Source of the DNA: an uncultured virus (IMG/VR IMGVR_UViG_3300008262_006132)
Lineage: Duplodnaviria; Heunggongvirae; Uroviricota; Caudoviricetes
DNA length: 64,000 bases
Virus record (IMG/VR): IMGVR_UViG_3300008262_006132
Coordinates: 1-64,000 of that record
Strand: one strand, 5' to 3'
The notes beneath the pieces are model-generated. The model was not told the origin of the DNA and ran no database searches. It saw only the letters and a program-made list of their open reading frames with translations. Positions 3,226 through 41,104 of this stretch are shown in pieces (the first letter of the stretch is position 1; every line of letters begins with the position of its first letter). The translations under genes were made by a program, and so were the position numbers.

Positions 3226-3501
3226 ATGGTAAATCAAATTAAACCCTTGGGTGACAGGGTTCTGGTGGAACCCGCCCCAACAGAAGAAAAAACATCAAGT
3301 GGTATCATTATTCCTGATACTGCAAAAGAAAAACCACAACGTGGTCGAGTGGTAGCCGTAGGTGGTGGAAAGAAAGATGATCCTCTTACCGTAAAGACCG
3401 GAGACAGTGTACTGTTCGGAAAGTTTTCTGGAACAGAATTTAAATTCGAGGGAAAAGACTACCTCATTATGAAAGAGTCTGATATTTACGCAATCATCTA
3501 A
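3226..3501 (+). CDS. groES: Co-chaperonin GroES
   Basis: [32 protein letters not shown]. Confidence 0.98.
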
Positions 3502-3510
3502 AAAATCTAA

Positions 3511-5145
<1,635 letters not shown>

Positions 5146-9281: not shown

Positions 9282-9821
9282 ATGGGTAAAATAAAGAAAT
9301 TCTTAGATTATATAACTGGATATACTAGTTATCAAAGTAAACTTAATAGAATGGTAAACAGAACTCGCGAGTACCAAGCTGGTCCTCAAGTAACTGGTAA
9401 TGGTCAAATGACCGCTGATGAGATTTTGGAAACTTTTTCAATGATTAAGGACTATCTTACTCTCCTAAGTGATACAGCTGGTGTTCAAGTAATCTGGCCA
9501 AGATATAAAAAAAATCCGACAGCTCTTTTGCAAGGCTTAGGGTTGTTTCAATTCGAAACCAATTACTTATCACATACAATCACTAGTTTAAACAATTTTA
9601 TCATTCATGCTCAACTCAAAATATCAAAAGATGTTGATATGAAACAATTTCAGTTAGATTTTGAATCTTGTAAATCACAATTAAAGGCTGAGGATTTTAT
9701 TCTCGAATGGCACAAACCAGAAAATCCGTATCACGTTCAGGAATTAATTGTTAGACATATTTCATGTCCAACATTTGATCAACTGTCAAAGACGGCTAAA
9801 TTTACTCGTCGTTTTGCCTAA
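9282..9821 (+). CDS. Hypothetical protein (MGKIKKFLDY start)
   Basis: TAATATATA at 9268-9276 before ATG 9282. Confidence 0.65.
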   Translation: MGKIKKFLDYITGYTSYQSKLNRMVNRTREYQAGPQVTGNGQMTADEILETFSMIKDYLTLLSDTAGVQVIWPRYKKNPTALLQGLGLFQFETNYLSHTITSLNNFIIHAQLKISKDVDMKQFQLDFESCKSQLKAEDFILEWHKPENPYHVQELIVRHISCPTFDQLSKTAKFTRRFA

Positions 9822-9861
9822 TTATTTAACTTAAATCTACGATTATCGATAGTAAATTATT

Positions 9862-10215
9862 TTACTTAATTCTTTTCTTAATCTCAGACTTTATTTCAGA
9901 ACATTTTTCATATTCTTCTAAAGACTCGTATTCTTTAATCATGTCTTTCAACTGATCTGAGTCGCTAAGTTTTAGTCTTAATTTGAATCTTACTTGATTT
10001 AAATCATTTAAGTCATCACAATAAGAATCTATTATTTTTCCTATAACAAACTTATCGAACTTAGACGTTTCTATAAACTCAGTCCAAGTTTCAATCTCAT
10101 TATCTTTTAAAAATGTTACGATTACATTTACGCAATCATCAACTCTATTTTGAGTATTTTCATTTTTTTGAAAGCTAAATAGTTCGTTAAAGTTTGCGAA
10201 TTTTTTTAAAGACAT
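9862..10215 (-). CDS. Hypothetical protein with CTS-like N-terminus and UVR-like C-terminal helix (EEYEKCSEIK)
   Basis: MSLKKFANFNE; TAATATATA on the minus strand 10220-10228. Confidence 0.65.
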   Translation of the reverse strand: MSLKKFANFNELFSFQKNENTQNRVDDCVNVIVTFLKDNEIETWTEFIETSKFDKFVIGKIIDSYCDDLNDLNQVRFKLRLKLSDSDQLKDMIKEYESLEEYEKCSEIKSEIKKRIK

Positions 10216-10250
10216 GTAATATATATTAATTTTTTTCCTATATTTGTAGT

Positions 10251-10546
10251 GTCAAATGGGAGCTGCCAAAAGCCGACTAGCCAAATGACCTTGAAATCTT
10301 TTTTAAAATCTCAGATAAAACACTGTCCCTAACAGTCTGATTATAAACTGGGATTACCTTTTAGGGAAGGTTGGGCCAATTCAAAATATCTGTGGCACCG
10401 CAGAAACTACAAAGTGACTGACACATAAACTGGTAGTTATAAACAAAGATGTGTTAAAAAGAGAGGTAAAGTAGTGTGAAACTTTTAATCTCAAAATCCG
10501 ACGAAAGACTTACTCACAATAAGTTTCATCGTCGGATTATTTTTTT
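10251..10546 (+). ncRNA. Candidate large structured non-coding RNA of unknown family
   Basis: ORF-free gap, richer in GC than flanks; TATATTTG at 10239-10246; several hairpins; terminal 10-bp stem AATCCGACGA/TCGTCGGATT plus T7. Confidence 0.7.
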
Positions 10547-10620
10547 CACTGATGTCAAAAATTATTAAAATTTACCAAAGTCAATAGGAATAAGGTTTTC
10601 CGAGTGTTATATATAACACT

Positions 10621-11094
10621 ATGAAAAATTTAATCACATCAATCCTAATACTGGTAAGTGTTTTGGGATTTTCTCAAGAGAAATACGATTTATTTCTTGA
10701 TAAAGATAGAGCAGCTACATTTAATCAACCAAATTCATTAGAAAGAGCTTGTCAAATTTATAACTATGAACAAGTTGACTCAGTTTCTTTTTTGATCTAT
10801 AACGATTATTTAAGATTTGAATTCAAAATAGACTCGATCTCACTCACTGAAACTGAAAATATTAAGGGCAATTGTAAGGTCTCATTCTGTGGTTCTGATG
10901 ATGGTACATATAAAACCACACTTAATAAAATGGACCGCTATTGGTATATTATAAAATTTATTCAATCAGAAGAGATTTACCATTACTATTACTTTTATAG
11001 AAGATGGGATTTTTTAGAACCTTATTGGCCTGAGCATGAGAGAGTGATTATTGACGCCTCAGTTGTACCAACCACTGTAAGCGATTCTAACTGA
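10621..11094 (+). CDS. Secreted hypothetical protein
   Basis: Signal peptide MKNLITSILILVSVLGFS-Q. Confidence 0.7.
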   Translation: MKNLITSILILVSVLGFSQEKYDLFLDKDRAATFNQPNSLERACQIYNYEQVDSVSFLIYNDYLRFEFKIDSISLTETENIKGNCKVSFCGSDDGTYKTTLNKMDRYWYIIKFIQSEEIYHYYYFYRRWDFLEPYWPEHERVIIDASVVPTTVSDSN

Positions 11095-11772
11095 TGTAAC
11101 TCCTCTATTTACATGTGATACATAGTGGAACTTTCCTTTTCCATCTGGAATGTGGAAAAGAGTAAGTGTGTTAAATGTTGGACTTTCACTATATTCAATT
11201 TCAGTAACTTGATCATTAGTGAAGTGTAAAACACCACCCCAATGAGGCATCCATCTTTTGGTCAATTGTAAAACAAAACCCATCTTACCTAAAGATTCAT
11301 CGTGATGAGGAGATAGAAAACAACCTTCTGAATATTTTGATGCAAAAAGAGTGTTATAATTTGATATCTCCTGTCCTGATACTCTACTTAGAAAGTTTAG
11401 TACTTCCTCAGATCTTAACCAAGTTCTAAAGTCACACTCTTTACACCAACATCCTTGTACGTGGTCTCCTGCTGTTCTATAAAAATGATATGAAAAACCT
11501 CCAGTATTAAAAATACTATCAGAGTGGTTTCTTTCCATTAATATTCTTTCTTGATTTTCTGGAAAATCTCTGATAAAATCTACGGATCCGTTTGTTCCTG
11601 GTGAACTTACCGAGTACCACCAATTTTGTGCCATCTCGTCTGTAAAAAAGCTAGACAACTGATTTGCATAGTCATAATTTAGAAAGTTTCTAATTACAAC
11701 AGATCCTTGATTTACGAATTGATCATGCAATTCTTCAGGGTTTATATCGGGATTGATACTAGGACTAAACAT
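11059..11772 (-). CDS. 2OG-Fe(II) dioxygenase, prolyl-hydroxylase-like
   Basis: HxD in FLSPHHD, WGGVLHF, PTFN, HYVSHV, RIAYSGWY. Confidence 0.88.
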   Translation of the reverse strand: MFSPSINPDINPEELHDQFVNQGSVVIRNFLNYDYANQLSSFFTDEMAQNWWYSVSSPGTNGSVDFIRDFPENQERILMERNHSDSIFNTGGFSYHFYRTAGDHVQGCWCKECDFRTWLRSEEVLNFLSRVSGQEISNYNTLFASKYSEGCFLSPHHDESLGKMGFVLQLTKRWMPHWGGVLHFTNDQVTEIEYSESPTFNTLTLFHIPDGKGKFHYVSHVNRGVTSVRIAYSGWYN

Positions 11773-14617: not shown

Positions 14618-14855
14618 TGTCTATAATTTTATTAATTTGAAAATCTCTAACTTCAGAAACTGATACAAACCTACCTACATTATAAACGCGGAAAGACCAC
14701 TCTTCAAGAATGACTGATGCGAAGTTATTAGTTTCAACTTTTCCTTGAAATTTTTTAACTGTATATGTTTTACCGAATTCCAATTCAGAGTTACTTGGTA
14801 GTATACAAATAACTTTATCACCAGTTTCAAATATTTTATCAGTTGTGATTTTCAC
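14610..14855 (-). CDS. Small SH3/KOW-like hypothetical protein
   Basis: FETGDKVICI..LEFGKTYTV; TATATTTG on the minus strand 14860-14867. Confidence 0.6.
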   Translation of the reverse strand: MKITTDKIFETGDKVICILPSNSELEFGKTYTVKKFQGKVETNNFASVILEEWSFRVYNVGRFVSVSEVRDFQINKIIDNE

Positions 14856-14873
14856 TTTTCAAATATAAATAAA

Positions 14874-30667: not shown

Positions 30668-33600
30668 GTGGCTTTAATTCTTTTCGAAGAACCGGTTCCA
30701 GTAGAGAATGGTGATGTAAACTTTAGAGTAGACTCCAATAATTGGGCAGTTCCTGGTCAATCAGTACTTGTAAGCTATCCAGATGGTAGCTACTTGGGAT
30801 ATTTCATCGTGACTGATGTTTATATACTTGTAGAGCCTGATGGAACTGAGTATTTATATATTACTTGTCGGAATGTCACACTTTATTTTCCAGCAAATCC
30901 TGCTCCTTTATCTCAGATACCTCAGTTTTCAATAATTGGCCCAGGCATGCCTCCAAGTGGACCTCAAGGTGAATCAGGACCTCAAGGTTTACAAGGTCCA
31001 ACAGGTCCACAAGGTCTACAAGGTCCGACCGGTCCACAAGGTCTTCAAGGTCCGACTGGTCCACAAGGTTTACAAGGTCCAACAGGTCCACAAGGTTTGC
31101 AAGGTCCGACCGGTCCACAGGGTCTACAAGGCCCAACAGGTCCACAAGGTTTTCAAGGACCAACTGGTCCACAAGGTCCTCAGGGTCCTACCGGACCACA
31201 AGGTCCTCAAGGTTTACAAGGTCCAACAGGCCCTCAGGGTTTTCAGGGACCAAGTGGTCCACAAGGTCTTCAAGGACCAACCGGTCCAACTGGAGTTCAA
31301 GGTTTTCAAGGACCCTGTTGTGCTGGTCCAACCGGTGCGACTGGTCTTACTTTGACATCCGATTCTTGTTACATTTTTGACTATGATGATTCGACTACTC
31401 AGTCTTATCCAGGTAACGGTAGATTTAGACTTAATAACTCAGATATGGGTTCTGCAAATCAGATGTTTGTTTCTTACCAAGACACAACATCGAATGATTT
31501 GTCTAATTATTTTGAGGCATTAAATAATTATGGCACAACTCTTAGAAGAGGATTTTTGAAAATTCAACTTTCAACAGATCAGTCTTGGTTTCATGTATTT
31601 GAAATAACTGGTACGATTACATCTAGTGGTTCTGGTGTGACTAAATACTATTTAATACCAATTTCAAATATAGTTTCAGATAATGATTTTACTAATAATT
31701 CCAACAGCTATTTGTGTTTTACTCCTGCTGGTAATTCAACTACTGGTCCCCAAGGAGCTACTGGTCCTTCATTAGGACCTGCGGGTGCTCAAGGTCCAAC
31801 TGGTCCACTAGCTAATACAGTAACTGGTCCTCAAGGACCAACAGGCCTGTCAGGAGATGCTGGACCACAAGGTCCAACTGGACCTGCTGGATCCGGTGAT
31901 GGAAATACTGGACCACAAGGACCAACAGGCCTGTCAGGAGATGCTGGACCACAAGGTCCAACTGGACCTGCTGGATCCGGTGATGGGAATACTGGACCTC
32001 AGGGTCCAACCGGTCTATCAGGAGATGTTGGTGCACAAGGTCCAACTGGACCTGCTGGATTAGGTGATGGTAATACTGGGTCTCAAGGACCAACTGGACC
32101 GTTAGGTATGACTGGTTCACAAGGTTCAACTGGTAGCTCTATAACTGGTCCACAAGGATCAACAGGTATAATAGGTCCCCAAGGTCATACAGGACCTCCC
32201 GGTAATCCAGGTGGTGATCAGGGACCAACGGGTTTTCAAGGTAATACAGGAGTTCAAGGTATAACTGGACCATCAGCTACAGGACCGCAGGGTAATACAG
32301 GTATTATTGGTCCTCAAGGTCACACTGGTCCTCCCGGTAATCCTGGTGGAGATCAAGGTCCAACTGGTTTTCAAGGAAACACTGGTGTTCAGGGTCTTAC
32401 TGGACCTCAAGGTTTTACAGGAATCGGTACGACAGGATCTCAAGGATCTACTGGTTCTCAAGGCGCAACTGGTAGTCAAGGTTTAACAGGAACTCAAGGA
32501 GTGACTGGTACTCAAGGTTCTACCGGTATTCAAGGATTGACTGGACCACAAGGTTCTACCGGTTCTCAAGGTCAGACAGGAGCTTCTATAACTGGCCCGC
32601 AAGGAAACACAGGTGTAGGTATACAAGGCCCAACTGGACCTCCCGGTAATCCTGGTGGAGATCAAGGTCCAACAGGTTTTCAAGGTAATACAGGAGTTCA
32701 AGGTATAACGGGACCATCAATAACTGGTAATCAAGGACCTACTGGAATACCTGGTCCTCAAGGTGATACCGGTCCTGCCGGTCCTGCAGGTGGTCCTTCT
32801 GGTCCACAAGGAAACACCGGAATACAAGGTTTGACGGGATTACAAGGTCCAACTGGTTTTCAAGGATTTACTGGTTTACAGGGTCTTACTGGTCCACAAG
32901 GTTTGACTGGACTACAGGGATTAACTGGTCCACAGGGTGTAACTGGAACTCAAGGGTTTACAGGCACACAAGGAATTACTGGATCACAGGGTCCAACTGG
33001 TATTCAGGGTATGACTGGCACAAAGGGAGAAACTGGACCTTCAATAACAGGACCACAAGGTCCAACTGGTGTAGATGGTCTACAAGGTCCAACAGGACCA
33101 CCAAATGGTTTTCAAGGACCAACCGGACTTCAAGGTATGACCGGTCCAAAAGGTGACCCGGGTGGCTTTCAAGGACCAACAGGTCCAGAGGGTTCTACTG
33201 GTGTTCAAGGAACTACAGGTATATCTATAACTGGACCTCAGGGATTTACCGGTAATCAAGGAACAACGGGCTCTCAAGGATTAACTGGTACTCAAGGTAT
33301 AACAGGTTCTCAAGGTTTCACTGGTTCGCAGGGGGTGACAGGGTCTCAAGGATTTACTGGATTTCAAGGAAATACAGGATCTCAGGGAAATACAGGGTCT
33401 CAAGGTGTTACTGGATTTCAAGGTAATACTGGTATTCAAGGACCCACAGGTAATTCTATTACAGGACCACAGGGTGTCACTGGTATAGATGGTAATCAAG
33501 GTCCAACAGGACCTGCTGGTACACCTGGTGGACCTCAAGGATTCACTGGATTTCAAGGACCAACTGGGCCAAAAGGTGATCCGGGAGGTCTTCAGGGACC

Positions 33601-36600
33601 AACTGGAACAACAGGAGTTGATGGTCCAACTGGTACTCAAGGACCAACTGGTAATCAGGGTAATACAGGTCCACAAGGCACAACTGGGAGTCAGGGTATT
33701 ACTGGGCATCAAGGAACTACAGGAAATCAAGGTTCAACTGGTGTTCAAGGTTCTACAGGAATACAAGGACTCACTGGACCGAAAGGTGAAACTGGAACTT
33801 CTGTAACAGGTGCTCAAGGTCCAACTGGTGTTGGTCTTCAGGGTCCAACTGGACCACCGAATGGTTTTCAAGGACCAACTGGCTTCCAAGGTGCAACTGG
33901 TCCTAAGGGTGATCCTGGTGGATTTCAAGGTCCGACTGGACCAACCGGTCCTTCCGCAAATTACTATGTTCAAGAACCACCAGCACCACCGTCACCGGTA
34001 CAAGGTGATAGATGGTATGACTTATCAACGGGTCAAGAATTTGTTTATATAAACGATAATACCAGCTCTCAGTGGGTTACTCCAATTAATTTTTACAATG
34101 GTTCATCTACCGGTGGTAATACAGGTCCGCAAGGAACCACTGGTCCTCAAGGAATCACTGGAAGTCAAGGTCCAACTGGTCCTAGCAGTATCACAATAAC
34201 TGACCCTGCTGGTAGAATATTCTTTAGTAGTGGTAGTTCACTTACAAGCTCAAGTTGTTTAAGTATAAACGTATCAGATCTAAATTTAATTATTGGTTCA
34301 ACTGGTAGTTCTATTCTGGGCTACCTTGGTAACCCAGCCTCTGTCTATTGTAGTCGTAGAAATTCTATAATAAGCAGTTTTGATTCTGAGATTTCTGCTA
34401 TTAGCCGTGGTAACACTATAATTTCTGGTGAGTGTAATAGACAATGTGTTTCATGTAATTCAACAATAATTTCAAGTAAATGTAGTTGCATGGACCCCGC
34501 TGGTGGTATTTTTGGCAATGTACATTTTCACAGTTCGATAATAGCAGGATTCAATAGTTGTATAATAAGTTCTGGAGCAGTTACTGTCAAATATTCGTCA
34601 ATAGTGGGTGATTGTCAGTCTAGAATCCAATCTGGATGCACATCTTTGATAGGTGGGGGTTTTAAAAATGTAATTTGTACTAGTTTACAATCATCAATTC
34701 TTGGTGGATCGTGTAATGTTATTACAAATTCAACTTGTAATAGTTCTATTATAGGCAGTTACAGATCATGTATCAGTTGCTCAAAACAAACTGCAATAAT
34801 TGCAGGTGGAACTGGTAGTTTTATCAATTGTGCAAGTTGTAATTCATCACTTATTGGCGGATATAGAAATACATTAACGGCATCTTGTTTTAGTTCAATT
34901 ATTAGTGGTCAAAGAAACTGTATTAGTAACGGTGCAAACTCTATAATAATTGGTGGTTCTGGAAGTTTTATAAGCTCTACTGCTTCTAATAGTGTTATAG
35001 TAGGTGGTAATTCACTCACTTTAACAGCCTCTAATACCGTACTTGTGCCAAATTTAAGAGTTGCTGGTAATTTAATTCCTAACGCTGATCAGACTTATGA
35101 CCTTGGTGCAACTCCATCTGGAAGATGGAGAGATCTATGGCTTAGTGGTAACACAATATATCTTGGTGATTTAACTATCTCGGCATCTGGTTCATCAGTT
35201 GCAGTTCCAAATCTATTAGTTACCGGTGGCTCGACGTTTAGAGGTAGTCTATCTACAGGAACAGCTTCAGTATTGGGTAATATATCTGCAACTGGTTCAT
35301 TATCAGTAACGAATACAATCACAGCTGGTACTATTTCCGCAACTAACCAGGTAGATTCCAGTTCGTTCAATGCTGCTACTTATAAAATAGCTACTTTTAA
35401 AGCACTTGATGGACCAGCTTTTTCAGCTTATGGAAGTGTAGCTACGACGCTAAATAACGGTGTAGTAACTAAAATAACTTTGGATACTGAGGAATTTGAT
35501 ACTGACAATGTATTCAACACTTCAACATATCGATTCACACCAAATTTAGCTGGATATTATCTGTTCCATGGTCACATAAGTGTTGTCACATACGCATCAA
35601 ACACTAGCTCACAAATTATGTCATTATATAAAAATGGATATGAATATAAAAGAGGAGTTAGAGTTCCTTGCAATACTGCTGGTGTTGGGACCATGATTAG
35701 TGCAATGATTTTCATGGATGGAATCACTGACTATATCGAAATGTATGGTCTACAGAGTTCTGGTGGTAATGTTACAACTGAGACTGGTCAACAATTTGGT
35801 TCATATTTACAAGGTAATTTTGTGAAACCACCAATTTACTTATACGTTTCGGTTCAATATCTAGTCATCGGAGGGGGTGGCGGAGGCGGATGTAACTGGG
35901 GTGGAGGTGGAGGTGGAGGTGCCTTTGTTGAAGGAACTTCTGGATTTGCTAGAGGATTTGTTTATGATATTATTGTTGGAACTGGTGGGGATGGTGCAAC
36001 CACTGCGGGCTCCGGTGGTAATGGTGGTTCATCAACCATAACAGGTGTTAAATATACTCCTAGTACTTTTACTATTGATGCTTCTGGCGGTGGCGGTGGT
36101 GGATATAACATAAGTGGATCAAGTGCAGCTGCAGGAAATTCAAATGGCAACGGGTCTGGTGGTGGTGCTGGGTATCCAGGTTCTGGTGGAACAGTTGCTG
36201 GTGGGTCTGGTGTCAATAACGTAACTATAGAATTTCAAACTGTTAATTCATTCAACAGTGGGGGACAATCACAAGGTTTAAATTCTAGAGCATCTGGTGG
36301 TGGAGGTGGTGCTGGTGCTGTTGGACAAGAAGGTCAAACATCAACCACTGGTGGTAATGGTGGTGCTGGTAAAACAAGTTCAATAACTGGTGCTTCTGTA
36401 TACTATTCAGCTGGAGGTGGAGGCGGTGGTAATGCCGGAACAGTACAATCTTCAGGTGGGACTGGTAATACAGGTGGCAAAGGTGGAAATACAAATGGAG
36501 GCGCTGGTACAAGTGGCGCGGGTGGATATGGTATGGGCGGTGGTGGAGGTGCTACTAATGGTGGCCAAGGTGGTAATGGTAGTAAAGGTGTTGTTATTTT

Positions 36601-36709
36601 ACGTGTTTTAACTTCTCAAAATAGTTCGGGAACTGGCACCTATACAACAACAACTGATGGTCTATACACAATTTTCACATTTACTGGCGATGGCCAGTTT
36701 ATACCCTGA
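30668..36709 (+). CDS. Giant collagen-like fibre protein (collagen repeats, Cys-rich SxIxGG repeats, C1q-like domain, Gly-rich C-terminus)
   Basis: 2013 aa; long Gly-X-Y runs (GPQ/GPT); [37 protein letters not shown]. Confidence 0.9.
31826..32077 (+). repeat. Three tandem 84-nt (28-aa) units within fibre gene 1
   Basis: [28 protein letters not shown]; first two copies near-identical in DNA (offsets 31832 and 31916). Confidence 0.85.
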
Positions 36710-36736
36710 TAAAATAGATAAATAAATAAATAGAAT

Positions 36737-39700
36737 ATGCCAGTAAATTTTCCATCATTTCCCTCAACAAACGAGACCTACACTTTTAGTTCAACAGTGT
36801 GGACATATAATGGATATGCATGGGTTGTATCTTCATCGGCTCAATCAACTGGTGCTACAGGTCCTCAAGGTCCTACTGGACAGGCAGGATCAGGTTCCGG
36901 GGTAACAGGTCCTCAAGGTCCGACTGGTATAGATGGTGTTCAGGGTCCGACTGGACCAGCAGGTGGTGGATCTGGCACAACCGGTCCTCAAGGCCCAACT
37001 GGCCTACAGGGTATAACAGGTCCTCAAGGTTCAACAGGACCGGGTATTTCGGTTGATAGACCATTCACTGAAGTATTCTTTAGTGATGGTAATTTAGGCA
37101 TAACGAGTTCAGAAAACTTCACATTCAATCCAACTTACTCGAACTTAGTTTCCGGACTTTCTAATAGTATAATCGCTGGAGTCTATGGACCTACTGATAG
37201 TATTTCATCAGCTATAATTGGTGGTAAAGAAAATACTATATCTAATAGATCAAGTTATTCTACAATTTTAGGCGGATCTTGTAATTTAATTACTGGTACA
37301 TCCGCTTCATCAGCCGCTTCATCAGCTATAATTGGTGGTAAAGAAAATACTATATCTGATAGATCAAGTTATTCTACAATTTTAGCTGGATCTTGCAATT
37401 TAATTACTGGTACATCCGCGTACGGATTTGTAAGTGGTGTTTGTAATAAAATTATAAACAGTTCAAAATCTCATATAATAGGAGGTGAGAAGAATTCTAT
37501 TTGTAATTACGACGGTCTCTACCAAAATGCTAATCTATTGAATCTTGATAGCTCTTTAATAATTGGAGGATGTCAGAATACAATTATGAACAACAGTTAT
37601 GTTTCAAATTTCTCATCAATTATAGGTGGATTTACAAACTCGATATGTGATTCTCAACGTTCCTCTATCTTATTTTCATCTTGTTCAGTAAATCGTATAT
37701 CCTGTTGTGGTATTATATTAAATTCATATAAATCTATACAATGTTGGGACTGTAACAGTTTAATATTAGGTGGTTCATATAATTGGATTATTGGAAATTA
37801 TCTGGGACAACCAGAATACAACGTAATAGTTGGTGGTAAACATAATTGCATGTTCCAATTTAACTCATATACTGGTTACACCGGAGTCTCTTCCTATAGT
37901 GCTATACTATCATCTACTGGTTCAAGTATCAATTGGTCTATTTCAGGAGTGATTGTAGGTGGATCCGGAAATATTCTTGCAGGTCGACCGTATGACATCA
38001 AAAATCTAACTTCTACAATAATAGGAGGTAGATGTAACATTATTTTGATAGATGCTTTTGCTGCTGGTACATCGTCAGACAATTCAATTATGGGTGGATT
38101 CTGTAACAGAATTGTAAATTCTGATAGAAGTGCAATAATTGGTGGCAGTCAGCTCACCCTCACTCAATCGGATACAGTACTTGTACCTCAATTAAAATTA
38201 AACGAGCCTACAAATTCTGTAATATTATCTGCAACAAATGGGACTTTAAATATTGGAATAGGAACTTACTCTTACAGATTACCAAAGACTGATGGGTTAC
38301 CAGGTCAGTTATTATCAACTGATGGATTGGCATCTTCTGGTGGTACCCTTTCTTGGGTTACTGCTTCTGGTGTTGGTAGTCAGGGAGTGACTGGACCACA
38401 GGGTTTGACAGGTGTTCAAGGTCTAACAGGTCCTCAAGGTTTTACAGGAGATCAAGGTACAACTGGTTCTCAAGGATTTACAGGTAATCAAGGTCTGACT
38501 GGATCACAAGGAACCACTGGTAATCAAGGATTTACAGGTAATCAGGGTGTGACCGGACTACAAGGTTCGACTGGTGTTCAAGGATTTACCGGACCACAAG
38601 GATTTACAGGTAATCAGGGTGTGACCGGACTACAAGGTTCGACTGGTGTTCAAGGATTTACCGGACCACAAGGGTTTACAGGTGATCAAGGATCAACAGG
38701 ACCACAAGGTTTTACTGGTTTACAAGGATTTACTGGTCCACAAGGTCAACCCGGTCAAGCAGCTTCATACTATAATTACAAAGCTAAAACGGCAAGTCAG
38801 AGTGGTGATCCAGGATCAACATATATCCTCTGGAATAATGCTACACAAATAAGTTCAACACAAATAAACATAAGTCACATCAATAGAGATTCAGTGGATA
38901 TAGATTTCTTACTTGCTACAATTATCCCAGGCAACACAATAATAATACAAGCTGATGATAATTCAAATAACTATCAAAAATGGGTAGTTAGTGCCACGAT
39001 TTCAATAATCCCGAACTCTTATGTGCAAATACCAGTTACATTCGTAGAATATGGTGGTACTGGTAATTCATTTAATAATGATGATAATATTATAGTTATA
39101 GTTCAAACAGCTGGTTCTACTGGTCCACAAGGAAGTGTTGGTGTAACTGGACCACAAGGTCAAACTGGTATACAAGGATTTACTGGACCACAAGGTGCTA
39201 CTGGTTCAGGAATTTCAATCACTAGTCCAACTGGTGAAATATTCTTCAGCAGTGGTAGTTCACTAACTAGTTCTAGTTGTTTTAATATAGATTCATCAAG
39301 ACTGAATTTGATTATAGGTTCTACCGGTTCTAGTTTTGACAACACACCAAAAAATAATCGTAGAAACTCAATAATTAGTAGTGGGAATTCAAAAATATGC
39401 TATGGTAGTTGTGAGAGCGGAATCGCTTTTGGTCAGAATAATTTAATATACTCATCTATAAATTCATCAATAATATCAAGTCAAAATAGTTGTATTTGTA
39501 ATCCCTTGTCTAAATTTGTTTATAATAGTTCAATAATTGGAGGAGTAGATCATAAAATTATAGGAGCATCTTTTTTATCTTCTTATTCTTTGATTTTGGG
39601 TGGTACATCCTCAACAATTTGTTCTGCATATAGAACAGTAATAATTGGTGGTGGTGGCAACATAGCTTATGGTACAAATAGATCAGTAATTTCCGGGGGT

Positions 39701-41104
39701 ATTCAAAACACGCAATGTAATGCTTATAACTCGAACATTCTTGGTGGTGGTAGTAATTATATTGGTGTAAAATCCGGTTCCGTTGTATCAAGTTTGATAG
39801 CTGGTGGTTATAAAAATAGAATTTGTGGTGATGATTCCGATAGTGATATAATAATTGGTGGTAGAAGTAACTGTATTTGTAAATCTACTAATTCTGTAAT
39901 AATCGGAGCAAGTGGTAGTGCTATTTGCCAGGGAGCTGTAAATTCAGTGATAATTGGTGGTAATGGTCTTACACTTACAGCTTCAAATACTGTTTTAGTA
40001 CCTAACTTACAAATAGATGGTGTTTTAAATGGTAAGTTTATTAACCAGCAAACAAACACTGGTCCATATTATTTAGCCGAATTTAGAGGTAATGGTGGTG
40101 CGAGATTTAAAATAGGCGTGAGTGATGACTTAAATTTTGGAATAGCGAATGATGTTCTAAATAGCACCGATAATGGTTATGCTGATTACAACCTAAATGC
40201 TAAAGAAATTACCTTTGGAATAAACGACGATCCAGTAGTTGGACCGGGTCTACCAAACGCATTTGTGATTCACAATCAAGGAGCATGGGTTGAAATTACA
40301 TACGGATTAACTGTTAGTCAAGTTTTTAGTGTTAATGGTACAATCGGAAGTAATTTAATTCCTGATATAGATGCCTACTATGATTTAGGAGCAAGTCCTT
40401 CATCTAGATGGAAAGACTTATGGTTAAGTGGAAATACTATCTATTTGGGAGATGCTAAATTAAGCTCAACTGGTTCATCAGTTCAAATAGAAACTCTTTA
40501 TATAGGCACAACTAATCCAGTTCAGATCTCTGCAACTGGTAACTCACTGGTTTTTGGATCAACACAGTCTTATGCACTTCCAAACTACGATGGTGGTCCT
40601 GGTCAAGTTCTTTACACAGACGGACTAGGCCAACTTGGTTGGACTAATTCTGGAGGCGGTGCAGGTACACAAGGCCCAACTGGACCAGCTGGTAATGCCG
40701 GTTCACAGGGTCCAACCGGTCCGCAGGGTCCTACTGGACCAGCGCCAACAACTACCAATTCTTTTGGTATTACAATCGATGGCCAAGGTGGTACAATAAC
40801 AACTGGAGTTAAGGGTTATGTAAGTATACCTTATGATTGTACTATCACAGGATGGACTATAATAGCAAACGCAACAGGATCAGTTGTAATAGACGTATGG
40901 AAGGCGGCAAGTTCAATACCGACTGTTTCGAATAGTATCGCTGGATCTGAGAAACCGACACTATCATCAGCTCAATATAATCAAGATCTTACACTCTCAA
41001 CTTGGACTGTTTCTGTGGATGCTAATGATGTAATTGCGTTCAACGTCGATTCAGCAACTACAGTTTCAAGTGTGTCATTAACTATTGCAGTCAGTAAGAC
41101 ATAA
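36737..41104 (+). CDS. Second collagen-like fibre protein
   Basis: 1455 aa; MPVNFP..WTYNGYAW start, Gly-X-Y runs, SxIIGG repeats, modules shared with fibre 1. Confidence 0.9.
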   Translation: MPVNFPSFPSTNETYTFSSTVWTYNGYAWVVSSSAQSTGATGPQGPTGQAGSGSGVTGPQGPTGIDGVQGPTGPAGGGSGTTGPQGPTGLQGITGPQGSTGPGISVDRPFTEVFFSDGNLGITSSENFTFNPTYSNLVSGLSNSIIAGVYGPTDSISSAIIGGKENTISNRSSYSTILGGSCNLITGTSASSAASSAIIGGKENTISDRSSYSTILAGSCNLITGTSAYGFVSGVCNKIINSSKSHIIGGEKNSICNYDGLYQNANLLNLDSSLIIGGCQNTIMNNSYVSNFSSIIGGFTNSICDSQRSSILFSSCSVNRISCCGIILNSYKSIQCWDCNSLILGGSYNWIIGNYLGQPEYNVIVGGKHNCMFQFNSYTGYTGVSSYSAILSSTGSSINWSISGVIVGGSGNILAGRPYDIKNLTSTIIGGRCNIILIDAFAAGTSSDNSIMGGFCNRIVNSDRSAIIGGSQLTLTQSDTVLVPQLKLNEPTNSVILSATNGTLNIGIGTYSYRLPKTDGLPGQLLSTDGLASSGGTLSWVTASGVGSQGVTGPQGLTGVQGLTGPQGFTGDQGTTGSQGFTGNQGLTGSQGTTGNQGFTGNQGVTGLQGSTGVQGFTGPQGFTGNQGVTGLQGSTGVQGFTGPQGFTGDQGSTGPQGFTGLQGFTGPQGQPGQAASYYNYKAKTASQSGDPGSTYILWNNATQISSTQINISHINRDSVDIDFLLATIIPGNTIIIQADDNSNNYQKWVVSATISIIPNSYVQIPVTFVEYGGTGNSFNNDDNIIVIVQTAGSTGPQGSVGVTGPQGQTGIQGFTGPQGATGSGISITSPTGEIFFSSGSSLTSSSCFNIDSSRLNLIIGSTGSSFDNTPKNNRRNSIISSGNSKICYGSCESGIAFGQNNLIYSSINSSIISSQNSCICNPLSKFVYNSSIIGGVDHKIIGASFLSSYSLILGGTSSTICSAYRTVIIGGGGNIAYGTNRSVISGGIQNTQCNAYNSNILGGGSNYIGVKSGSVVSSLIAGGYKNRICGDDSDSDIIIGGRSNCICKSTNSVIIGASGSAICQGAVNSVIIGGNGLTLTASNTVLVPNLQIDGVLNGKFINQQTNTGPYYLAEFRGNGGARFKIGVSDDLNFGIANDVLNSTDNGYADYNLNAKEITFGINDDPVVGPGLPNAFVIHNQGAWVEITYGLTVSQVFSVNGTIGSNLIPDIDAYYDLGASPSSRWKDLWLSGNTIYLGDAKLSSTGSSVQIETLYIGTTNPVQISATGNSLVFGSTQSYALPNYDGGPGQVLYTDGLGQLGWTNSGGGAGTQGPTGPAGNAGSQGPTGPQGPTGPAPTTTNSFGITIDGQGGTITTGVKGYVSIPYDCTITGWTIIANATGSVVIDVWKAASSIPTVSNSIAGSEKPTLSSAQYNQDLTLSTWTVSVDANDVIAFNVDSATTVSSVSLTIAVSKT
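37204..37419 (+). repeat. Near-identical tandem duplication with 114-nt period
   Basis: SSAIIGGKENTISxRSSYSTILxGSCNLITGTSA at 37204 and 37318. Confidence 0.85.
38525..38668 (+). repeat. Exact 72-nt tandem duplication
   Basis: CAAGGATTTACAGGTAATCAGGGT...TTTACCGGACCA at 38525 and 38597. Confidence 0.85.

Follow-up and report, generated by a model that had tools for sequence, protein, structure and literature searches.

Huge phages of Bacteroidota are uncultured, and to our knowledge almost nothing is known of their noncoding RNAs. Several described RNAs nevertheless offer points of comparison. The packaging RNA (pRNA) of phi29, for which Rfam includes a model, carries two complementary loops in one RNA, and its copies can join head to tail. 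T4 species 1 and 2 are small stable noncoding RNAs that lie inside a tRNA cluster, and their function was long unknown. In type III toxin-antitoxin (ToxI-like) systems, a promoter is followed by a noncoding RNA, a terminator, and an ORF of about 160–170 aa. ROOL RNAs are about 600–800 nt long. GOLLD and ROOL are large ornate RNAs of phages and prophages that form cages via kissing loops (bioRxiv 10.1101/2024.12.08.627333). The intergenic sRNAs of Bacteroidota are reported to act by base pairing, and TAnnTTTG is given as the Bacteroidota -7 promoter consensus (PMC7366714).

We analyzed a 64-kb window at the start of an IMG/VR virus record of 137 kb (CheckV completeness, 44%); the window contains a candidate noncoding RNA unit of ~295 nt. 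The intergenic sRNAs of Bacteroides thetaiotaomicron resemble this unit in that they have a TAnnTTTG -7 promoter, end at an intrinsic terminator, are some hundreds of nucleotides long, and contain no ORF (PMC7366714). In contrast to these sRNAs, the unit is phage-borne and matches no described family; by analogy, it may work like a phage-carried intergenic sRNA gene of Bacteroidota. With GOLLD and ROOL, the unit shares that it is phage-encoded, that its function is unknown, and that loop-loop complementarity offers a possible intermolecular contact. However, GOLLD is given as 800+ nt, against ~295 nt for the unit (bioRxiv 10.1101/2024.12.08.627333). Furthermore, the unit differs from both classes in having no Rfam match and no covariation-backed fold, in lying 8.5 kb from a tRNA, and in having a body that folds at chance level. 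It differs from phi29 pRNA in that it has no Rfam match and in that the phage equipment includes a baseplate and a T4-type terminase, not phi29-like packaging. Any likeness to pRNA or to ROOL/GOLLD would be one of loop complementarity only. Like T4 species 1 and 2, the unit is a phage-encoded candidate noncoding RNA, but the T4 RNAs lie inside a tRNA cluster and the unit is not beside a tRNA. The order of elements is the same as in type III toxin-antitoxin systems, but the unit has no tandem repeats, and the protein encoded downstream matches no family and begins with a hydrophobic, signal-like N-terminal segment.

The record has a G+C content of 32%, and a simple ORF call assigned 93% of it to coding and ~7% to intergenic sequence. 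Letter-for-letter copies of the phage were found in a 172-kb IMG/VR contig and a 291-kb metagenome contig. Its baseplate protein is 63–65% identical to those of two “uncultured phage” genomes of 635–642 kb. Weaker kinship of this protein was found with three more genomes of 462–735 kb (four records, two of them alike), with the Lak phages of Prevotella, and with jumbo phages of Tenacibaculum, Flavobacterium, and Chryseobacterium. A domain scan covered 134 of the 153 called genes, and 13 ORFs were covered in a separate scan. Two phage proteins (L023:9667-11622 and L024:4229-6148, both on the minus strand) have a C-terminal Por_Secre_tail, the sorting domain of type IX secretion (T9SS), and one of the two has additional Peptidase_M43 and fn3 domains. 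These proteins would be phage-encoded cargo for the host T9SS and would mark a Bacteroidota host. Together with the host-type promoter described below, they point to such a host. Fifteen DNA runs contained at least 74% (about three quarters) of the sampled words of the stretch, and these runs were labeled as freshwater, lake water, estuary, or “fungus metagenome.” All 20 runs that contain such words belong to 13 studies; run X16 (13% of the sampled words) is marked “RNA?” but is probably DNA, and runs X17–X20 contained only 5%. None of the runs containing the stretch was clearly an RNA run.

The unit lies in a gap of 405 nt (10216–10620) between a minus-strand gene of 117 aa and a plus-strand gene of 157 aa. 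We consider that there is about an even chance that it is a separate transcription unit of a Bacteroidota huge phage, in which a host-type promoter is followed by a noncoding RNA of ~295 nt with its own terminator, and whose primary sequence is constrained. The features of the region are as follows.

9862–10215, minus strand: divergent neighbor gene, 117 aa, no family
10216–10232, minus strand: phage-type promoter-like motif TAATATATA, directly before the ATG of the 117-aa gene
10239–10246, plus strand: host-type (Bacteroidota sigma-A) -7 box TATATTTG, from an exact-match census; predicted start at ~10251–10252
10251–10546, plus strand: predicted noncoding transcript, ~295 nt, with a promoter before it, a terminator after it, and no ORF of at least 30 aa; the low-divergence block ends at the terminator
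10251–10289, plus strand: G+C-rich 5' segment (GGGAGCTGCC...GCCGACTAGCC), with GTCA/TGAC and TGG/CCA as weak closing pairs; MFE -7.3, z -0.98
10308–10354, plus strand: long hairpin with the apical loop CCCTA (10327–10331); pair probabilities 0.83–0.96, z -1.5 when folded alone
10356–10371, plus strand: short hairpin ACCTT-TTAGGG-AAGGT, with a loop complementary to CCCTA; z -1.35
10389–10404, plus strand: hairpin TCTGTG-GCAC-CGCAGA; z -2.75, 3 of 200 shuffles as good
10405–10438, plus strand: hairpin AACTAC/GTAGTT with a hypervariable 22-nt loop, from the strain comparison
10461–10492, plus strand: hairpin GAGA..AAAGT-AGTGTGAA-ACTTT..TCTC; z -2.15
10495–10546, plus strand: intrinsic terminator, a 10-bp + 7-bp hairpin with the apical loop CTCACAA (10513–10519), then T7; z -7.21
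10607–10617, plus strand: phage-type promoter-like motif TTATATATAAC, directly before the ATG of the 157-aa gene
10621–11094, plus strand: downstream neighbor gene, 157 aa, hydrophobic signal-like N-terminus, no family

No ORF of at least 30 aa was found across the gap 10216–10620 under code 11, with TAG read as Q, or under code 4, so the region that a sequence-only reading of this DNA had called ORF-free is indeed so in three genetic codes. Protein Atlas look-ups of the 117-aa and 157-aa neighbors returned no function. A replication origin was rejected, because there is no skew turn and there are no iterons at the locus. The only array detected by TRF was a weak 9-nt one at 10146–10171, outside the unit, and a repeat search over the unit found just short two-copy families and no tandem repeats. 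These include the direct repeats GTAGTGTCAAA and GTAGTGTGAAA (10246–10256 and 10471–10481), and ATAAACTGG, which occurs twice within the unit (10343–10351 and 10425–10433). Such short direct repeats may be traces of internal duplication or may be due to chance.

The box TATATTTG upstream of the unit was located at 10239–10246, as the sequence-only reading had noted. In a census of the record, TAnnTTTG occurred at 249 sites, which is near expectation overall. The exact TATATTTG is present in 18 copies in the 137-kb record, nine of which are intergenic. The intergenic copies lie mostly 4–15 nt before start codons, and one lies 50 nt before the tRNA-Arg gene; the box at 10239 has no gene behind it. 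The host-type box precedes only about eight genes, the tRNA, and the noncoding unit. Start codons placed 4–15 nt after the box suggest leaderless or near-leaderless early mRNAs. A GTG-start ORF of ~79 codons (window 14621–14860, minus strand) has a TATATTTG box (14867) 4 nt ahead of it; in the ATG-only ORF call, this stretch appears as a 256-nt gap. A second motif, ATATATA (often TAATATATAA), precedes 59 of the 153 called genes at a distance of at most 45 nt, against an expectation of 2.2. Judging from these motifs, the phage seems to have two promoter classes, with the noncoding unit in the rare host-type class. Because the phage-type motif stands before both flanking genes, the unit would not be needed for their expression. 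If these classes are borne out, they provide a testable map of early versus phage-driven transcription.

The 3' end of the unit had been described as terminator-like, and the folding analysis agreed. The terminator AATCCGACGA...TCGTCGGATT followed by T7 has a z of -7.2, with 0 of 200 shuffles as good, and is thus exceptional against shuffled sequences. In a second strain (described below), it carries the substitutions C10502T and G10507C, has lost 3 nt at 10529 by deletion, and has a T run longer by one letter. The folding energy is -26.5 in the reference and -24.9 in the second strain; introducing only the substitutions gives -22.4, and introducing only the deletion gives -20.0. The changes are therefore jointly compensatory, and a strong stem is kept. 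Elsewhere in the record, z values of -4 to -5 are reached by gaps whose hairpins are simply terminators. The lowest values of the record (-4.6 to -4.9) belong to the gaps at G000 98531–98866 (L023:14531-14866) and 73141–73393 (L022:9141-9393), both of which contain long perfect G+C-rich hairpins that are terminator-like and usable on both strands. No promoter box is present in the former; the latter carries an ATATATA motif of the phage type and, on the minus strand, a box of the host type.

Natural variation was compared over 9600–11300 in four runs, using contigs only, which carry neither transcript ends nor strand. In two runs, a second strain was present beside reference-like contigs at similar depth. 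For the second-strain contig over 10456–10637, the list of differences is complete and comprises 12 substitutions and 8 gap letters. Within 10456–10546, there are two substitutions in 91 nt (about 2%), both of them the terminator changes given above. The first differences after the unit appear from 10547, and four gap letters accompany ten substitutions over 10547–10601. The contig that follows covers 154 nt of the 157-aa gene, 27 of which are substituted. The comparison is thus 2/91 in the unit block versus 37/215 (about 17%) just downstream (Fisher p = 1e-4). At the other end, a second-strain contig matches the window up to 10107 and then again from 10251 onward; the shorter of its two matching sides measures 29 letters. 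The second-strain contigs skip 143 nt (10108–10250), which include the start of the 117-aa gene and both promoters, and they also skip 222 nt within the 157-aa gene (10762–10983). These two skips indicate that both neighbors are mosaic between strains and that the noncoding unit is kept.

In the 5' part, the second strain has 28 substitutions and 13 gap letters over 10251–10485, including C10289T, A10332G, T10336A, A10386G, and 11 gap letters among the differences listed. Since 24 of the 28 substitutions fall outside those listed, the conservation of 10251–10455 is an upper estimate. We infer that most of these 24 sit in the loop at 10406–10428, where the gap letters cluster, with second-strain deletions of 1, 2, 3, and 4 nt at 10406–10425. 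The run X16 alignment is interrupted at 10415, where a different, shorter loop follows, and GTAGTT then appears again. The stem AACTAC/GTAGTT is kept, and its loop is free to vary. With respect to the other elements, C10289T changes a G-C pair to G-U, and A10332G keeps a wobble pair; both G-U pairs can form on the plus strand only. In the long hairpin at 10308–10354, the end pair is lost through T10336A. The hairpin at 10389–10404 has no change among the second-strain differences listed, and that at 10461–10492 is unchanged according to the complete list. The listed 5' changes destabilize the predicted fold by +3.3 kcal/mol, compared with +0.8 ± 2.6 for random sets, 85% of which are no worse.

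We also analyzed the fold of the unit. For the full stretch, the z values were -3.34 (plus strand) and -3.09 (minus strand). When the terminator was removed, the body (10251–10494) had a z of -0.49, with 63 of 200 shuffles as good, and the other strand had a z of -1.13. With the terminator alone at -7.2 and the body at chance, the value for the full stretch is due to the terminator. Every stem and loop listed in the sequence-only reading is present at its place, and a script check confirmed the complementarity of TTGAA/TTCAA, AATCTCAG/CTGGGATT, ACTGT/ACAGT, ACCTT/AAGGT, and TCTGTG/CGCAGA. The domain that TTGAA/TTCAA was proposed to close fared less well: its letters are complementary, but 10291–10384 has a z of -0.51, and the helix is absent from both the MFE and the centroid structure. 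Given its MFE and z, the 5' segment at 10251–10289 is probably mostly single-stranded. The short hairpin at 10356–10371 competes with a longer helix pairing 10295–10307, which is seen in the MFE structure. The best z values of single hairpins (-2.75 and -2.15) were obtained with the hairpins cut at their own borders, which favors them.

Searches for known families returned no match at the unit. With the 4,227 models of Rfam 15 at the gathering thresholds, nothing was found at the unit, just the tRNA in the window, and nothing in the rest of the record. A permissive search (E up to 10) of 9800–11000 gave four chance-level matches (E 3.4–7.7), far below the gathering scores. A tmRNA was rejected, because ARAGORN found only the tRNA-Arg at 1685–1761, Rfam gave no tmRNA up to E 10, and the 3' end is a plain terminator. 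RNase P, SRP, and 6S RNA were likewise rejected, with no covariance-model match at gathering or with E up to 10 over 9800–11000. The earlier statement that the region bears no tmRNA, RNase P, or SRP signature is consistent with these blank results. Membership of the GOLLD, ROOL, OLE, or raiA classes was rejected, because there is no Rfam match and the folding energy of the body is at chance. An antitoxin RNA of type III toxin-antitoxin systems was rejected for want of tandem direct repeats in the unit. A riboswitch or attenuator of a known class was rejected, because there is no Rfam cis-regulatory match and the alternative partner of the terminator arm offers only 5 contiguous pairs, 250 nt away. 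On its sequence, the unit has the marks of a stand-alone sRNA gene, i.e., its own promoter, its own intrinsic terminator, and no conserved ORF.

A single phage species with its strains is the only known source of the unit. A “distant” blastn search against GenBank phages gave no match to it. Exact-pattern scans with four blocks of the unit in viral, metagenome, and genome contigs returned two contigs of 100% identity and two hits judged to be chance, namely L027, a G+C-rich contig that shares only 20 letters, and L032, a planctomycete chromosome. Homologs of the 117-aa protein (39–46% identity), in a 23-kb IMG/VR contig and two huge-phage genomes, face a large ORF across ~70–100 nt, and no such unit is present at the matching place beside them. 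The 157-aa gene has no homolog in GenBank phages, and in IMG/VR it occurs only in the identical contig. A covariance model (R1) was built from a single sequence, the 5' 154 nt with 39 pairs, and reaches moderately distant relatives only. It recovered itself in G000 and G001, and gave matches in none of the five huge-phage genomes and none of the ten related IMG/VR contigs, save for one noise hit of 7.7 bits. BLAST of the whole unit against the five huge-phage genomes gave short A+T-rich matches only (best E, 0.007). The gathering of homologs, covering these five huge phages, the ten IMG/VR contigs, and the pattern scans, thus yielded none outside the phage species. A keyword-level survey of the literature on huge phages, megaphages, and phage kissing-loop RNAs found no described RNA like the unit.

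It is unlikely, in our assessment, that the region has no dedicated RNA function and simply combines a terminator with a control region lying between divergent genes, with incidental hairpins and a recent recombination patch. Recent recombination is another possible source of patchy conservation in phages, and the chance-level folding of the body, the plain terminators in the other low-z gaps, and the absence of the unit at the matching place in relatives and of homologs elsewhere are all consistent with such a region. However, a terminator without an upstream gene on its strand needs a transcript to end, the class of promoter box is strongly enriched between genes, and the terminator has undergone compensatory changes. 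Additionally, a single recombination patch does not account for a low-divergence block that stops at the terminator and has a hypervariable loop inside it.

We regard it as improbable that the unit is a cis-acting 5' leader of the 157-aa gene at 10621–11094, with the terminator serving as an attenuator that a ligand, protein, or RNA could override. The unit and the gene are on the same strand in the order of promoter, structured leader, terminator, and gene, and a near-copy of the 5' arm of the terminator at 10269–10278 could in principle compete for the 3' arm. However, this alternative pairing has just 5 contiguous pairs and would be weaker in the second strain, and no riboswitch family matched. 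Most other promoters of this class lie 4–15 nt from a start codon, not 375 nt, and divergence is about 17% in the 61-nt spacer and the gene, against about 2% in the unit. The phage-type promoter-like motif at 10607–10617 follows the terminator and precedes the ATG of the 157-aa gene, and a motif of its own, of the other class, argues for a separate unit over a leader. An mRNA of a very small protein, either the 10-codon ORF from ATG 10256 (9 nt after the box, in line with the 4–15 nt of other genes of this promoter class) or the 27-codon GTG ORF at 10249–10332, with the rest as a long 3' UTR, is very improbable, because GTG 10249 is only 2 nt after the box and ahead of the expected start, a 1-nt deletion at 10308 in the second strain shifts the 27-aa frame, in which C10289T also changes a residue, and conservation runs more than 200 nt beyond either ORF.

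The sequence-only reading had emphasized two complementary loop pairs. The pairs CCCTA/TAGGG and TGTGA/TCACA are each 5-nt Watson-Crick complements. When the loops were randomized, two disjoint loop pairs of at least 5 nt arose with P = 0.004–0.008 given six hairpins, and both neighbor pairs together arose in 0.02–0.06% of randomizations. This test is post hoc, since the hairpins were chosen after the sequence had been seen and are themselves not beyond chance. None of the four loops has a change among the second-strain differences listed, and that list is complete for the 3' pair only. The complementarity is present and uncommon by chance (P about 0.005), but the loops show no listed change and no covariation, so that covariation speaks neither for nor against the contacts. 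The proposed pseudoknot between TGACACAT and ATGTGTTA is not supported: TGACACAT is part of the hypervariable loop, and neither natural variant retains it, while ATGTG is kept; in one natural strain 10 nt of this loop are lost, and in another the loop is replaced. The further proposal of a tertiary-folded RNA of a new class is not borne out either, given a body at chance (z -0.49), a hypervariable pseudoknot partner, and loop pairs without covariation. A related idea is that the unit is a new lineage-restricted self-associating RNA, in which CCCUA pairs with UUAGGG and AGUGUGAA pairs with the terminator loop CUCACAA, so that copies chain or close into rings. Each loop pair joins hairpins of unequal height, which would favor contacts between molecules. 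We consider this idea a long shot; if it were true, the RNA would resemble pRNA or the ROOL/GOLLD assemblies on a small scale.

Returning to the separate transcription unit, the anatomy from promoter to terminator and the conservation between strains are plain, and the steps of its expression can be sketched. Host RNA polymerase would start at ~10251, just past the TATATTTG box, and transcription would end at the strong intrinsic terminator at 10546. The resulting RNA would be G+C-rich and mostly open at its 5' end, and would further contain some local hairpins, a single hypervariable loop, and the terminator hairpin, the last of which should protect the 3' end. Selection would act on the nucleotide sequence and not on an unusually stable global fold. 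Because the sequence appears to be under selection without such a fold, we infer that the RNA would act in trans, via exposed conserved stretches and loops. The likeliest mode would be base pairing with a host or phage RNA, and the holding of a protein would be less likely. Among the start regions of the called genes in the 137-kb record, no base-pairing target stood out: the best duplex was -37.2, compared with -31.4 ± 3.1 for shuffles (minimum, -42.9). The suggestion of an early-expressed phage RNA outside Rfam fits the host-type promoter, the terminator, the absence of an ORF, the absence of Rfam and ARAGORN matches, and the conserved block, and in this suggestion transcription, its timing, and any target are the conditional parts.

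We describe the unit as a plausible lineage-restricted phage noncoding RNA, for which the folding results do not support an elaborate fold. It is a clean candidate in that its promoter class is reserved for the tRNA and about eight genes, its terminator has been repaired by compensatory change, and its block is nearly constant between strains while the neighboring genes drift. As an orphan candidate, its value at present is that of a lead. If expressed, it would offer a handle on early host takeover in this clade.

Several other genes of the phage were recorded during the domain scans. The phage carries a GroES/GroEL pair, a ClpP protease, and a ClpS adaptor (window 3226–5145, plus strand; L023:2246-2911, minus strand; L025:5248-5529, plus strand). 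Further phage genes encode HU, a histone H1-like Hc1 protein, PPK2, a ferritin, and an adenylosuccinate-synthetase-like enzyme. Collagen triple-helix repeats are present in two giant proteins of 1,920 and 1,455 aa, counted from the first ATG (window 30947–41104, plus strand).
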